Source: a virus. Taken from it: DNA of 19,219 nucleotides. Each line of letters opens with the position of its first letter. Within the stretch, counting starts at the first letter, position 1. Below are positions 120 to 19,219 of this stretch, piece after piece. The notes under the pieces are model-generated. The model worked only from the letters and a program-made list of their open reading frames with translations. It was not told where the DNA came from and searched no databases. The stretch lies in UHGV virus genome UHGV-0267650, one strand, 5' to 3'. Both the position numbers and the translations under genes were made by a program.

Positions 120-386
120 CCGTCACAACTATCACGCATCCTGAAATCACACCTTAACCACATGATTAATTTAAATAAATATTGTGACGGTAAAACCATC
201 ACAAAACGTAACGTAAACAGTCACACCCAATAAATTCAGTAAGTTATAAAACAGAGTTGTGATGGCTTAAGACCGTCACACTGGGATGCTGTTGTGATAG
301 TTTTGTGATGGTTTTCAATACCACTATTTACTTATATTTATCATAGAGATAGTTATTATTTTTAAGTCTTGTGACGTTTGTGACGG
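120..386. repeat. Array of at least ten copies of an 8-bp motif TGTGAYRG (or its complement CYRTCACA) in direct and inverted pairs around an AT-rich core
   Basis: Copies read directly: 120-127 (-), 129-136 (-), 183-190 (+), 196-203 (-), 258-265 (+), 273-280 (-), 293-300 (+), 304-311 (+), 370-376 (+), 379-386 (+). The pair at 258-280 forms a 23-bp near-palindrome TGTGATGG-CTTAAGA-CCGTCACA. Confidence 0.7.
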
Positions 387-1016
387 TTTTCCGATGGTCC
401 CCCTCAATTTTTGAAAAAATCAGAATCGGTCAGAAATCACCCTGATTTGTTGGTAGTTTTGTATATCTATCTGTTAGTGACTTGAACACTGTAGCGTATA
501 CGTTAATGCAGGTATGGCGATGGTTCATGCTGTGCAAAGTATTTCAGTTCCGCATTTCATTGCTATTACGCGCCAGAGCACGTCAGCTAAGGCCTGGACA
601 CTTCCACGCACTGACCTGATCTCGCTGCGACCGTTACGTAAAAAGTCACGTAATCGCTGTTAACCCCGCATGAAACCCGGCACCGGCATTGTTCACCCAC
701 AGCCGGTCATCGCACAAAAACTGAAATCCTTGAAATTTGTTTCACACATTTCAGTTGGCGAACTACTGCCAAAGCCCCAGCGCTGGCGCGGTCTGGCGAT
801 GTGTTTTGTACCACCGGAAAAACTGAAATCATTCTCAACACGAAAACCGCAGGCGGGTGCGGTGTAGCGCCGTTTTCGTCACTTCCGCCGTTATTTCGTC
901 ACGGCAGGCTGTATCAGCGCCTTGCTGCGCTACTGAAGTTAATCAGGTTGGGATGAACGGGTGCAGATAATTACGGCGCTCAGAATGCGTCTGGTGAGGT
1001 CTGGTGGATACGATAA

Positions 1017-4568: not shown

Positions 4569-6142
4569 TATGCGAGTCTCACTATGTAGTTAAATGCAAT
4601 ATTCTTAACGGTCGTTTCTGCGTTGCCCGACGCGACGACGGTAATGGTGTGACTGTGTGCGCCAATGGCTACGGTATGAGAGTGAGCGCCAATACCTACG
4701 GAGTGATTATGTGCGCCAATGGCTACGGTGTGCGCGTGGTTTCCCGCTGAACTGGTATTTACGGTATATGCAGTACCACTTCCGCCTGCTGATCTGGCTA
4801 TTCCTGAACCATCAGTGCCTCGCGTGGTAAAACCGTGTGCGTGCGCCCCTGTCGTATTTGTCGTTTTTGTACCGTGGTCAAACGTACTCGCCGTTTTAGT
4901 ACCGTAATCAAATGAGGATGTTGATTTCGTTCCCAGATCGGTACTTGATGCACTGGCAGTGTGAGCATGGGATTTATTGCCATCATCTTCACAGGACAAT
5001 ACTGCGCGGCCATCTGGTTTTCCTTTGATTGTCTGGCGGCGCATGTCAGTAATAACACCCGATGGATACGCAGCAGCCAGCAAAGGATATGCCGCTGTAT
5101 TAAAAGACTGCCCTTGCATAATTGCCCATCCAGTAGGTGGGATATCTGTTGGCCAGGGAAGCGGCACACCAACCGGCAGAACATCACTACGACTTAAAAC
5201 GGCCAGTTCACCCAGATCCAGGCTTTTTCTTGCCTTTACCTTGTCGTTAACATCAGCAAGGTTTGCATCCTTACGCAAAAAATCGATGCTGGCCTGCTGT
5301 TCTCCCAGGTTACCTTTTGGCCGTAAATCCGTGATGTTGCCATCCACATCAATGCTGGCCACCGCAAACACGTAATGCTGAACCCCGTTCTGAACGTAAT
5401 CAGCAAGATTTGCTGCCACCGTGATTTTGCTCTGCACATTCCAGACACTAGTCAGTGTCCCTGTCCAGCACACATCCAGCCAGACTTTTACCGGCTTTGT
5501 CGTCACCGTAATATTCTGGTTCGCTGCCAGTGACGCACGAAGTCCAGCCACATAACCCGTGCCTTTCGTGACAAAAAACTGATTGCCGGTTTTGGCTACC
5601 AGATACCCGTCACCAAAAAACGCCGCCGCGCCATAAATATCCATATTTTCCAGGCGCTGGCGCTCATCCATTCCGGCCATACGCGCGGTGAAATCAATCT
5701 GCCAGGTTTCAGCAGGCGTACTAATCCCGGTTTCCGTCTGTGCGCCGTTGTACTCCATCAGAAACGAGCGGGTCAGCACGTTTCCCTGTTGCCCTTCTTT
5801 TGTTTTCAGTTTCTGCTGTGATGGTGCATGGACAATCATTGCCAGCGTACCGCTGGCCTTATTGAGCAGACCGATCCAGTTAAAACTGAAATCACCCACA
5901 TCTGCGCCCAGCACTACGGAATAAACCACCCCATTTTCATTCACCACACCCGTGCGGGTAACAGCCTGCCGGTGAACAATCTGTGCTGTCGGGGGTAACA
6001 CTTCATTACGGTCAACAGGTGTATCCGGGTTTAAATCCGGCACACTGGCAAATACAAATTCGTCCAGTAGTACCGGTTCACCCGTAGCGCCCTGTTGCGC
6101 TTTCCAGTTTTCAAATGCCAGTGTGATGGCTGTCTGTGACAT
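4568..6142 (-). CDS. Tail fiber protein (P2 gpH / Mu gpS-like N-terminus; His-rich repeat C-terminal tip)
   Basis: 524-aa ORF with AAGGAG about 8 nt upstream of the ATG. The N-terminal ~100 aa resemble the conserved N-terminal domain of P2 H / Mu S fibers. The C-terminus carries tandem 11-aa repeats rich in H-x-H ([32 protein letters not shown]), and the gene is followed by a Tfa gene. Confidence 0.75.
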
Positions 6143-8243: not shown

Positions 8244-10207
8244 ACACCCAGCTCCTGATATTCCATTAACTTGCCGGGCGACATCATTTCAGTTGGATAA
8301 ATATTCACCGTATCAATTCTGCGGCTGTTATCCGTTACTGATTTAGAATTACTACTAATTGTTTTACTGATACCGCCTTTATCAACGCCTTTTAATTCAC
8401 CGCCAGTAGAAAGGGTATTCGTTGTCAGTGCTGGTTGAGATTCGTTCGCCAGTGAAATATCGACGCCCGGAATTTTATTGAGTTTTCCGACAATCCAGTT
8501 CCACGATTTCAGGAACCCGCCTTTGATGGTCTGCCAGACGTTATCAAACAGGGAGACAATCCCGCTGGCCATGCCGCTTAGCGCCTGTGACGGTGAAAAG
8601 CCGGTCAGCAGCGCAATAAAGCTGTTCCAGCCGTCCGTGATCCATTGCCACGCCGCGGAAAACACGCCGGCAAGCCATTCAACCACACCAGCCACGGCGG
8701 TAAACGCTGCCGTATTCATCACCGCCGCTTTCACATCATCCCAGTGTTTAATCAGCAGATAACACCCGGCAGCCAGCAGAGCAATCGCCCCGATAACCAG
8801 CAGAACCGGCCAGCTCATCAGGTTGATGCCAATACCGGCCATAATCGCCGCCATACGCACGGCCAGCAGCGTACCCCGCAGGAATTTCAGCGTCAGGTTC
8901 CACGCCACAACAGCCTTTGAGGCAATCCAGACCGTGGCCGTGTAAAACTTCGTGACCAGCGTCAGGGCGCTCCAGAGTCCCTTCAGTCCCACCAGGATAA
9001 ATTTTGAGACGCCCATGACAATATTTGTCACCGCGCCCGCTGCCGCCACGCCAAACAGCGCAAGTTGCACGTAACCAATCACCCGCGCAATGTTGGGAAA
9101 CATCTGCATCCAGCGTCCGAACGTCTGCCCCATATCGGCCAGGCGGTTCAGTACCGGGTACAGAACCGGGATCAACGTCAGTCCGATCACCGTCTGAATG
9201 GCTTTAAGGATTTGTACAAAGCGATCCCACGGCCTGACCAGCTTCCCGGCCATCTCCTGTGTACGCTTCAGCCCGTCAGAGCCGCCCAGTTCGGTGATAT
9301 TACGCTGCAGTAACGCCACATTGCCGTACAGATGTTTTATCACCGCTGAACTGTCACCAAATGCCGCATCCAGCTCCGCCTGGGCTTTCAGGTTCCCTTC
9401 CAGGCTTTTGCCGTATTTGCCCTGCAGCTTGATCAGCATTTCAGGCATGGACAGCATTTTGCCGGTGGAGTCCGTAAAGGACAGCCCAAGCTTTTTAGCG
9501 CCCTCTATCGCGCCGGTCATGAAACCTTCGTAAGCGCTGCTGGCCTCTGTTCCCAGCGTACGGTTGAGCTGTCCCAGCACCGCCAGCTGTTCATCCAGCC
9601 CGACGCCGTAGTTGGTACCGACCCCCCGCGCCCCTTCCATCAGGTCTTTAATGGTACCCATTTCGGTACCGAAGACCTTGCGCATATACACCATTTTTCC
9701 CGCCAGTTGCTCAGCGAACTGGACTTTACCCAGCCGCGCCGCATCGTCGGAAAAGTTACCGTACATCTGCCCCATGAACTCCGCCGTGTCGGCGGATGTG
9801 GATTTTAGGGCAAATGCCAGCGTATTAGCGACCTTCGTCACTCTCGGCAGCTCGCTGGCGGTAAGGCCGGCAATGGACGCGTTAATGTTCTCTGTGGATT
9901 TGACGAACTCCACCGCGCTGGCACCGTAGGTCATGCTGAACCGGAGCGCGTCACGCTGTACGGTCTTTAATGCCTGATTATCAATCCCTTTTGCGGCGGC
10001 ATCATTCAGCGCGTCGTACATTTCGATAGCCGGCGATAACGCGCCTTTTATGGCCATTCCCGTGCCAACCAGTCCCAGCACGCCGCCACCAATCTGCGAA
10101 AAGGCCGCTTTTGATTTTTCCGCAAAGCCGGTGACGCTGCCCTGCGCCTGTTTTAACGGGCGCGTCAGCTTATCAATCAGGCTTAATGTAAAATCTAACT
10201 GTTTCAT
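8240..10207 (-). CDS. Tail tape measure protein
   Basis: 655-aa ORF, the longest in the tail module. It is Ala/Gly/Leu-rich with helical N-terminal repeats and hydrophobic segments in the C-terminal half, and sits directly downstream of the chaperone/frameshift pair. Its ATG overlaps the stop of the frameshift extension. Confidence 0.8.
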   Translation of the reverse strand: MKQLDFTLSLIDKLTRPLKQAQGSVTGFAEKSKAAFSQIGGGVLGLVGTGMAIKGALSPAIEMYDALNDAAAKGIDNQALKTVQRDALRFSMTYGASAVEFVKSTENINASIAGLTASELPRVTKVANTLAFALKSTSADTAEFMGQMYGNFSDDAARLGKVQFAEQLAGKMVYMRKVFGTEMGTIKDLMEGARGVGTNYGVGLDEQLAVLGQLNRTLGTEASSAYEGFMTGAIEGAKKLGLSFTDSTGKMLSMPEMLIKLQGKYGKSLEGNLKAQAELDAAFGDSSAVIKHLYGNVALLQRNITELGGSDGLKRTQEMAGKLVRPWDRFVQILKAIQTVIGLTLIPVLYPVLNRLADMGQTFGRWMQMFPNIARVIGYVQLALFGVAAAGAVTNIVMGVSKFILVGLKGLWSALTLVTKFYTATVWIASKAVVAWNLTLKFLRGTLLAVRMAAIMAGIGINLMSWPVLLVIGAIALLAAGCYLLIKHWDDVKAAVMNTAAFTAVAGVVEWLAGVFSAAWQWITDGWNSFIALLTGFSPSQALSGMASGIVSLFDNVWQTIKGGFLKSWNWIVGKLNKIPGVDISLANESQPALTTNTLSTGGELKGVDKGGISKTISSNSKSVTDNSRRIDTVNIYPTEMMSPGKLMEYQELGV

Positions 10208-15272: not shown

Positions 15273-15986
15273 TCAAACTCCCGTAGACTCTTTTTTCAGC
15301 GCCCGCAGACGCGCAGCAATACGCTGCAACATCGTGCCAACACCACATTTAGGGTCGAATCCCTTCGCCTGCTCCAGCAGTTCCTTAGCCCGGAGCAATA
15401 CTTCCCTGTCTTCCGTTGCCGCTGCGCGTGGCTCTCCGTTTTCATCGCGTAGCAGGTGCAGACCGGCAAACTTCAGGTATTTGGCCTTAATGACCTCATA
15501 CACATTCCAGTGCTGCGTCACGTTTTCCAGCGTACGGCCAAAATACGGCTCCACATCATGCCCCTGTACGGCTTCCGCTTCCGCCCAGGACAACACCGTA
15601 TCCGCCACAAACACCGGGAACGCGCTGCCGAACGCGGCCGGGGTTTCCTGCCCCCGCTGGATTGCCACATCCGCCCAGTCCAGCGCCTGGTCAAACTGGC
15701 CTGTATCAAACAGCCAGACGACACACCAGGCAAAAACAGGATTCTGTTGCACACTGTCACCTTCCAGCCAGGATTGCGCGGTTGGCATCCAGCGCGGTAA
15801 CAGCACATCACGCTTAAATTCCATTCGCTCAGCGCGGCTTTCAATCGCTGCAGCTGCGGCGACATCTTTCTCCAGCGCGACAATCTGAATATGCAGGCTG
15901 GTTTCCGTGTCCAGAGACTGCTGCTGTCGCAGTAACCGCTCCGCTTCAATTCGTGCGCTGTGGCGCTGTGCCGGTGACAGTTGCAT
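15273..15986 (-). CDS. M: Terminase small (endonuclease) subunit, P2 gpM-like
   Basis: 237-aa ORF with N-terminal SPAQRH and internal LHLLRDENGE, matching P2 gpM as recalled (SPAQRH..., ...LFLRDGGD). RBS AAGGGGGA. Located between the capsid and head-completion genes. Confidence 0.7.
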   Translation of the reverse strand: MQLSPAQRHSARIEAERLLRQQQSLDTETSLHIQIVALEKDVAAAAAIESRAERMEFKRDVLLPRWMPTAQSWLEGDSVQQNPVFAWCVVWLFDTGQFDQALDWADVAIQRGQETPAAFGSAFPVFVADTVLSWAEAEAVQGHDVEPYFGRTLENVTQHWNVYEVIKAKYLKFAGLHLLRDENGEPRAAATEDREVLLRAKELLEQAKGFDPKCGVGTMLQRIAARLRALKKESTGV

Positions 15987-18041: not shown

Positions 18042-19219
18042 CATGGCTAAATATTCAGAAGAATTAAAAGGCGTTGCGCGGGCGCTTTATTTAAAACGCT
18101 ATACCACGCAGGAAATTGCCAGCGAACTTAATCTGCCTAACAGACGCATTGTCTATTACTGGGCGGAGAAATATTGCTGGGCGGAATTACTCAGTCATGA
18201 ATCCACCGAAGATGCATTAAACCGTCGCATTCAGTCACTGACATTACGTGAAGGGAAATCGGAGCTGGAGCTGCGGGAGCTGGACAATCTCGTTTCTCAC
18301 CTGGTGAAACTACGTGCACAACACAATAAGCATCAGGAAAAGCTGGCAGAAATTAAACACAGTGAAAATGATGCGCCGACGCGTCAGTCCGGTGGCGACG
18401 AAAAGCCCCGGAAACGTGGCAAGTACAAAAAGAACGACATCAGCGGACTGACACAGGAAGATTTTGACCGGTTCGCACTGGAGCACCTTTTCGGCTATCA
18501 GAAACACCTTCGCGCTAATCTTCATCAGCAAATCAGGAACATCCTGAAAAGCCGCCAGATTGGTGCAACCTGGTATTTCTCAATAGAAGCCTTTGAGAAT
18601 GCGGTCATGACAGGCGATCCGCAAATCTTCCTGTCCGCATCAAAGGCTCAGGCGGAAGTATTCCGCAGCTATATCGTCAATATTGCGGAGCAGTATTTCG
18701 GCGTGGAGCTGACGGGAAACCCCATCCGCCTCTCCAACGGCGCGGAGCTGCGATTCCTGTCCACCAACAAGAACACCGCCCAGTCATACAGCGGCCATCT
18801 GTACTGCGATGAATATTTCTGGGTACCCAACTTTGCAAAATTAAACGAAGTGGCCAGCGCGATGGCCACACACGACAAATGGCGAACCACCTACTTTTCC
18901 ACCCCCAGCAGCAAAACGCACCAAGCGTACCCGTTCTGGACTGGTGAAGAATGGAAGCGCGGTGACAAAAAACGCGCGCGCGTACAATTTCCCACGGAGA
19001 AGGAGCTGCGCGACGGTGGACGGTTATGTCCTGATGGACAGTGGCGCTACATCATCACGATGGAAGACGCGATCGCAGGCGGGTTTAATCTCGCCAGCAT
19101 CGGGAAGCTGCGCAACCGCTACAACCGCGACACTTTCAACATGCTGTATATGTGCGTGTTCGTGGACAGCAAGGACAGCGTATTTTCGTTCTCTCACGTG
19201 GAACGCTGCTGTGTAGATC
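18042..19219 (+). CDS. P: Terminase large (ATPase) subunit, P2 gpP-like; 3' end truncated by the window edge
   Basis: Open frame from the ATG at 18042 to the end of the window, 392 codons. SRQIGATWYFS, YFSTPSSK, LCPDGQWRYIITMEDAIAGG and YMCVFVDSKDSVFSF correspond to P2 gpP SRQIGATFYFA, YFSTPST, LCADGQWRQIVTIEDALAGG and FMCEFVDDKASVFPF (recalled). Confidence 0.85.

Follow-up and report, generated by a model that had tools for sequence, protein, structure and literature searches.

Oriented boxes at fixed distances from the cohesive-end site of a P2-family temperate phage probably belong to its DNA-packaging signal

We analyzed a 19,219-nt stretch of viral DNA (UHGV virus genome UHGV-0267650, referred to as the window here), in which positions 541 to 902 probably form the DNA-packaging signal (cos region) of a P2-family temperate phage (Peduoviridae, ESSI-2/Evevirus-like), with a set of short recurring boxes that would be read by one phage protein, most likely the terminase. 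This reading was obtained by comparing the window with the corresponding sequences of related phages and prophages. The segment lies within a stretch, positions 71 to 1045, in which we found no convincing open reading frame (ORF). From position 1046 onward follow the genes of a P2-family structural module, given as minus strand (a gpP-like ORF is given as plus), and on the other side a minus-strand gene starts at position 70 and extends past the left end of the window. Among public sequences, the closest relatives are prophages of Escherichia coli (86% identity), followed by Escherichia phage ESSI2_ev239 (79%; Peduoviridae, Evevirus). In an E. coli prophage, the non-coding stretch homologous to that of the window is flanked by the last tail gene on one side and by an acyltransferase cargo gene on the other. 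What lies to its left differs among the relatives: an unknown gene in the window, an acyltransferase in the E. coli prophages (L001) and in ev239 (L002), and an abortive-infection protein plus a serine acetyltransferase in phage ev040 (L022). A variable hotspot of cargo and defense genes beside cos has been described in P2-like phages (PMC9122126), and the variable left gene among the relatives of the window fits such a cos-adjacent hotspot.

As judged from physical ends in the records and contigs of relatives, the phage cos is at positions 852 to 870 of the window (GGCGGGTGCGGTGTAGCGC). Five observations led us to place it there. First, the 15-mer GCGGGTGCGGTGTAG that both opens and closes the record of Cronobacter phage ESSI-2 is identical to window positions 853 to 867. 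Second, the linear record of ESSI2_ev239 has a Nextera adaptor at an end that corresponds to about window position 857 and resumes at about position 856. Third, ev040 contains adaptor sequence inserted within the 19-mer that corresponds to 852 to 870, and fourth, IMG/VR contig L018 terminates inside this same segment. Fifth, the G+C-rich cohesive end of P2, GGCGAGGCGGGGAAAGCAC, matches 852 to 870 at 11 of 19 positions in register; PMC3931495 gives this sequence as a 19-nt 5' end, which differs from the 15-nt terminal repeat seen in the ESSI-2 record. In the phage group of the window, cos separates the cargo/int region from the end of the tail operon and is away from the portal gene, unlike in P2, where it lies beside the portal gene. 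The comparison therefore gives a definite role to a "non-coding flank" of ∼360 bp, and it places cos for the ESSI-2/Evevirus type of P2-family prophages, which are widespread in enterobacteria and little studied. The existence of cos sites in P2-family phages is already known, and the termini of ESSI-2 are in GenBank; we found no paper containing the cos 15-mer in the literature searched, and the reviews examined mention P2 cos in general terms only.

The same comparison showed that two RefSeq phage records are contaminated with Illumina Nextera adaptor at or inside cos. In ev239 (NC_049392), the adaptor stands at cos and the artefact regions are 1 to 116 and 29128 to 29203, of which the first 116 nt duplicate the phage's own tail-fibre gene and represent an assembly artefact. 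In ev040 (NC_049393), the adaptor is at about 1430 to 1470, inside cos. Three loci (L099, L103, and L118) have the exact 19-nt cos core without the left box array or the G+C-rich block described below; they may represent a different left flank or recombinants. L103, though it has no box array, encodes a homologue of baseplate J.

The boxes to the left of cos have AACTGAAAT as their true core word. Four exact copies are present on both strands of positions 71 to 1045 (719 and 821 on the plus strand, 541 and 748 on the minus strand), against an expectation of 0.01, and none of 1,000 dinucleotide shuffles equaled this count; two further, short boxes (TGAAA/TTTCA) are at 731 and 740. Any 9-mer with at least four copies occurred in 1 of 1,000 dinucleotide shuffles. 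The shorter word CTGAAATC has three copies in the non-coding stretch (0.01 expected), AAAAACTGAAATC is present twice at a distance of 102 nt, and ACGTAA/TTACGT has five copies where 0.8 are expected, a number reached in 2 of 1,000 shuffles of 71 to 1045. An earlier, sequence-only reading of the window had pointed to an excess of short recurring words in this region, and the shuffles bear this out. AACTGAAAT also occurs inside two tail genes (5884 to 5892 on the plus strand and 8286 to 8294 on the minus strand), and six exact copies in 19 kb are well above the expectation for a 9-mer.

Some of the copies that this reading had listed are where it put them, namely CTGAAATCAC at 141 to 150, CAGAAATCAC at 431 to 440, ATTTCAG at 541 to 547, CGTAAC at 1 to 6, and ACGTAACGTAA at 206 to 216. 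Others are real but displaced: CTGAAATCC is at 721 to 729 rather than at about 720 to 728, CTGAAATCAT at 823 to 832 rather than 812 to 821 (an error of 11 nt), the second ATTTCAG at 748 to 754 rather than 750 to 756, and the palindrome TTACGTAA at 634 to 641 rather than 635 to 642. The boxes at 730 (TTGAAAT) and 740 (TTTCA) had been missed, as had the adjacent cos, only 20 nt past the last copy listed. The proposed motif family holds in part, given that the copies at 541, 721, 748, and 823 are kept in relatives but those at 141, 431, and 1 to 6 are not members of it. The copy at 141 is found in the closest relatives only, with unrelated sequence in the others, and since it varies even among close relatives, we attribute it to chance. 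CGTAAC at 1 to 6 lies inside a coding gene and is likewise a chance recurrence. The copy at 431 is kept wherever an array of TGTGAYGG iterons is present and makes up half of an inverted repeat, AAATCA-ccc-TGATTT; as it has no counterpart in iteron-free cos flanks, it belongs to the neighboring iteron module. ACGTAACGTAA reads ACGCAACACAA in about half of the relatives.

To put the boxes into the context of the family, we scanned the IMG/VR viral contigs with the cos core plus 4 nt, which yielded at least 120 loci, and a scan with the baseplate protein contributed 80 further loci. Combined, these searches gave at least 154 to 156 distinct left flanks with 120 representatives. A 21-mer from the G+C-rich block retrieved two loci from genome contigs, one of which (L007, a Flavobacteriaceae MAG) is a chance match. 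The zero point of all offsets is window position 849, the G of GCAGGCGGG (referred to as the anchor). Among the at least 156 flanks listed, boxes are found at fixed offsets from cos of -306, about -128, -118, -108, -99, and about -27, and the window copies at 541, 721, 730, 740, 748, and 823 coincide exactly with these family-wide offsets.

From left to right, the array begins with a distal box at 541 to 549 (ATTTCAGTT, i.e., AACTGAAAT on the minus strand), ∼307 nt left of the anchor, where TTTCAGT at offset -306 is present in 76 of 120 representatives among the matches listed. A cluster of four boxes follows. Its first member, AACTGAAAT at 719 to 727 (plus strand), is represented by ACTGA/TGAAA at -131 to -125 (ACTGAAA at offset -130; 99/120 listed representatives), and its second, TTGAAAT at 730 to 736 (plus strand), by TGAAA(T) at -119 to -114 (TGAAAT at offset -118; 104/120 listed representatives). 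The two remaining members are on the minus strand: TTTCA at 740 to 744, found at -110 to -106 (offset -108) in 96/120, and ATTTCAGTT at 748 to 756, found as TTTCAG(TT) at -101 to -94 (TTTCAGTT at offset -99) in 104/120 of the listed representatives. Next come a G+C-rich block, AAAGCCCCAGCGCTGGCGCGGTCTGGCG, at 771 to 798, with the palindrome CCAGCGCTGG at 777 to 786, and a TTTGTA box at 805 to 810; among the matches listed, CCAGC, GGCGC, and CTGGC are found at offsets -72, -64, and -56 in 66 to 88 of 120 representatives, and TTTGT at -46 to -42 (offset -44) in 90. The last member is a proximal box, AACTGAAAT at 821 to 829 (plus strand), 23 nt left of cos, with AACTGAAA at -30 to -24 (offset -29) in 104/120 listed representatives. 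Just to the right of cos, at 870 to 902, the window contains a direct repeat of the pattern CCGTT(N)TTCGTCAC, with copies CCGTTTTCGTCAC at 870 to 882 and CCGTTATTTCGTCAC at 888 to 902; family-wide, CGTTT..GTC words stand at about +20 and +40 from the anchor in most members, including a lineage with a different box word (TGCAA; see below).

This conservation of position is found in flanks that have otherwise diverged. Upstream of about -140 (-340 to -140), the flanks are mostly unalignable to each other, yet the box positions are fixed. Of 126 unique flanks among the matches listed, 74 have TTTCAG at -304 to -308 and at most 5 have it at any other position between -340 and -160, and no other position between -302 and -151 reaches 40% of the 120 representatives among the matches listed. 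The distal box is missing from 35 of 141 TGAAA-type flanks among the matches listed and is therefore not essential. In all relatives of the window subtype, the copies at 541, 748, and 823 are unchanged, which provides the conservation in related elements that the sequence-only reading had looked to; box 721 reads CTGTAAT in two relatives, L001 from E. coli and L127. Its broader proposal of functional DNA dense in protein-recognition sites, rather than plain spacer, holds. The notion that the repeats are chance recurrences in an A/T-rich spacer applies to two of the items listed, the copy at 141 and CGTAAC at 1 to 6. As an account of the remaining boxes, however, its probability is close to nil, since 0 of 1,000 shuffles reach the observed counts and more than 100 diverged flanks among the matches listed keep the positions, so that it is refuted for 541, 721, 748, and 823.

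We observed that the word in the boxes changes between lineages in a concerted manner. Among the matches listed, 137 of 156 distinct flanks have TGAAA/TTTCA at the cluster and proximal positions, 15 have TGCAA/TTGCA at every one of them, and 4 are odd in their box word. At the distal position, TTTCA is found in 106 of 141 non-TGCAA flanks and TTGCA in all 15 TGCAA flanks, with cross-matches to the other class in only 2 and 0 flanks, respectively, again among the matches listed. A third word, TGCAT, is present in P2 (L004, right end), P4 (L142), and 186 (L143), at -124, -111, -101, and -29 from the start of the 19-nt cos. One word has thus been rewritten everywhere, including in copies 100 and 300 nt away, as a single sequence-specific reader predicts.

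Such a reader need not be the terminase. The boxes could instead be bound by an architectural protein of the host (IHF, Fis, HU, or similar) or by another phage protein (a late activator or a protein of the Cox type) that shapes the cos region, in which case the terminase would recognize only the G+C-rich block and cos. A/T-rich words about one helical turn apart, with outer distances in phase, are typical of DNA-bending proteins, lambda cosB uses IHF, and the G+C-rich block at 771 to 798, which is common to 186 and P4, is at least as conserved as the boxes. Nevertheless, we regard this explanation as rather unlikely, because host factors are conserved across the Enterobacteriaceae, which is at odds with a word that changes in concert between phage lineages (TGAAA, TGCAA, and TGCAT). 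Given that P2/186 and ev239-type phages all grow on E. coli (PMC6969025) and have different words in this one host, the reader of the boxes is most likely phage-encoded, as far as the word comparison indicates.

Within the cluster of two direct and two inverted copies (721, 731, 740, and 749), neighboring boxes are separated by about one helical turn, and the outer spacings, 102 nt from 721 to 823 and 207 nt from 541 to 748, are near whole helical turns. The sites would therefore be on one face of the DNA, which would permit a bend or wrap. The opposite orientation of the copies also allows for a different reading, in which the inverted boxes, instead of being words bound by a protein, would owe their function to a cruciform or hairpin formed by 719 to 756 in supercoiled or single-stranded DNA. 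The arms 719 to 735 and 740 to 756 are 82% complementary, and the single-stranded DNA of 719 to 756 folds at -8.5 kcal/mol (z = -2.1), but an equally good or better fold was obtained for 11 of 200 shuffles. Moreover, pairing is confined to the boxes with the spacers unpaired, and the arm spacers are of unequal length in other family members, which speaks for oriented protein sites arranged in an array and against selection for a hairpin. Although they are outside the hairpin, the proximal and distal copies switch their word along with the cluster. Taken together, we consider a role as a DNA structure improbable. A small RNA locus, one of the functions suggested by the sequence-only reading, is disfavored as well, since the inverted repeat at 719 to 756 pairs through the boxes alone and no Rfam family reached its threshold; a scan of 1 to 1200 with E values up to 10 returned only subthreshold noise (isrK, 16 bits versus 50; MicF, 22 versus 79).

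A function of the boxes as transcription signals, i.e., as operators or promoter elements that control the variable cargo genes or an unannotated small RNA beside cos, was also considered. The annotated old-tin transcripts of P2 start just downstream of its TGCAT cluster, and cos-adjacent cargo genes carry their own promoters (PMC9122126). In the window, however, ∼650 nt separate the cluster from the closest start of a leftward gene, and in the family the distance of the boxes is constant to cos and not to any gene, even though the cargo genes vary. Promoter prediction, which the sequence-only reading had recommended for this region, found no more promoter-like sites than in shuffled sequence, and the Rfam hits stayed below threshold. 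We therefore see little chance that the boxes serve transcription, and a promoter reading of the region was rejected for want of a nearby gene start and of promoter-like sites beyond the shuffle level. Terminator hits at 781 to 798 and 846 to 871 are the conserved G+C-rich blocks of the cos region and were considered unconvincing. A 65-amino-acid ORF at 670 to 867 and two hypothetical genes of ev239 that span the boxes and cos were rejected as genes because conservation follows box position, not reading frame; the "hypothetical proteins" annotated over the cos flank of ev239 are thus doubtful.

For the packaging signal, which we prefer, the predicted sequence of events is as follows. A single sequence-specific phage protein would read all boxes, the terminase (gpM/gpP) being the most likely candidate. 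Its binding is predicted to bend or wrap roughly 300 bp, and the bent or wrapped DNA would place the nuclease on cos. The choice of the DNA to be packaged would follow from this placement, as it does with lambda cosB and with the pacL/pacR boxes of SPP1. The window encodes a homologue of the small terminase gpM at 15273 to 15986 on the minus strand (PF05944 at 5.9e-38), a large terminase in the form of the gpP-like ORF, which starts near 18100 on the plus strand and contains Terminase_5 plus Terminase_6N, and a P2-family capsid protein. When gpM was paired with the cos flank in 43 loci, 22 columns discriminated the TGCAA lineage, 9 of them within the first 37 residues (e.g., SPAQRH[S/N] versus SPCQRHR). 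Discriminating columns in other proteins of the TGCAA lineage amount to 15% in the capsid, 27% in the tube, 9% in the sheath, and 4% in baseplate J, so that this lineage is a separate clade across the structural proteins examined and gpM, although its pattern is compatible with the model, is not singled out by its class-specific residues. The N-terminal SPAQRH motif is presumably also present in gpM of P2, a phage that uses a different word. No relative of gpM was found among solved structures.

According to PMC3931495, the conserved cos region of P2 and its relatives comprises 55 bp (Ziermann and Calendar 1990, as cited there). A P2-type core of this size would cover the proximal box alone and thus counts against the reading in which the full array is used.

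The nearest known counterparts are the cos regions of P2, 186, and P4 (Ziermann and Calendar 1990, as cited in PMC3931495 and PMC9122126), which share with the window a terminase of the same family (gpM with PF05944 and a gpP-like protein). The sequence AAAACCGC just left of cos is common to the window and to P2, P4, and 186, and 186 and P4 have a related GGCGCGG(T)CT box at the place of the window's G+C-rich block. Their box layout (-124, -111, -101, and -29) agrees with that of the window family (-128, -118, -108, -99, and -27), and by position the proximal box of the window corresponds to the TGCAT box at -29. They differ in the word itself, TGCAT versus TGAAA, and in that the window has an extra distal box at about -306. 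In P4, TTTTTACTGAAAAAAG is located directly upstream of the TGCAT cluster and resembles the first box of ESSI-2.

More remote systems offer a likeness in layout or mode of action only. In lambda cosB, the gpNu1 sites R3, R2, and R1 and an IHF site adjoin cosN, and the small terminase reads these sites and positions the large subunit; the sites are 16 bp long and fall within ∼120 bp, and we know of no distal site at ∼300 bp in lambda. The likeness to the window consists of several short sites, in both orientations, on one side of the nicking site, with no homology in sequence or protein (gpNu1 versus gpM). In SPP1, Chai et al. in 1995 reportedly described pacL boxes a and b and a pacR box c that are bound by the small terminase G1P; these short repeated boxes are said to flank the cut on both sides at a spacing of about one helical turn, and DNA bending or looping is proposed to join them. 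The window, too, has repeated short boxes and repeats on the right of cos (870 to 902), but SPP1 packages by a headful (pac) mechanism and has an unrelated terminase family and host.

The fixed positions, the word change, and the layout shared with P2, P4, and 186 provide a testable model of DNA recognition by P2-type terminases, which is poorly defined beyond the 55-bp core, and are relevant to helper-satellite specificity and to the design of transducing vectors that use cos. Our literature search, which did not cover the primary P2 cos paper, found no description of the box layout, the distal box, or the concerted TGCAT/TGAAA/TGCAA switch. A more far-reaching generalization, which we put forward tentatively and think more doubtful than the packaging signal itself, is that P2-family phages may specify packaging through an evolvable code word of 5 to 6 nt (TGCAT, TGAAA, or TGCAA) at five or six phased positions over ∼300 bp, including the fixed distal site at ∼306 nt, with one terminase assembly reading the wrapped DNA and the whole set having been rewritten in concert at least twice. 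If true, the word would define groups of packaging compatibility and predict which cos-carrying satellites, such as P4, exploit which helper phage, and packaging specificity could be re-engineered by word swapping.

The boxes are present whatever replication module or cargo gene lies to their left. Of the functions that the sequence-only reading had proposed, an origin of replication does not suit the CTGAAAT boxes, which follow cos and not the replication module: ESSI-2, which has a gpA-type nickase and lacks iterons, shows the same offsets as ev239, in which iterons and a P4-alpha-like primase are present. An att site (attP) was rejected too, since the region is internal to the prophage in E. 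coli, where the boundary is more than 1 kb further left and the acyltransferase gene separates the region from raiA at this boundary. ESSI-2 has a tRNA-like attP candidate ∼750 nt left of cos.

A separate element of the window is the iteron array at 110 to 400, with ∼10 copies of TTGTGAYGGTTTT (TGTGAYGG). The left-hand and right-hand copies are oppositely oriented around an A/T-rich center (310 to 360), and the arms 110 to 135 and 371 to 396 are 88% complementary. This array is limited to one cos-flank subtype. Where a replication gene is visible, it is a P4-alpha-like primase in both of two iteron loci (ev239 included) and a gpA-like nickase in all seven iteron-free loci. It is reasonable to regard the array as a candidate origin for the primase-type module, distinct from the boxes.

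An accessory element of the window cos subtype is found at 633 to 654, an island (GTTACGTAAAAAGTCACGTAAT) of two ACGTAA words 12 nt apart that contains the palindrome TTACGTAA. It is kept in 16 of 16 flanks of the window subtype, including four without iterons, even where its surroundings diverge; it is absent from ESSI-2-type flanks and, among the matches listed, from most other family members. GATCC boxes, which contain Dam sites, are found at -149, -139, and -12 in 50 to 71 of 120 representatives among the matches listed and in none of the window subtype. The ACGTAA-N6-ACGTAA island and GATCC may thus represent a second, accessory recognition word that differs by lineage.
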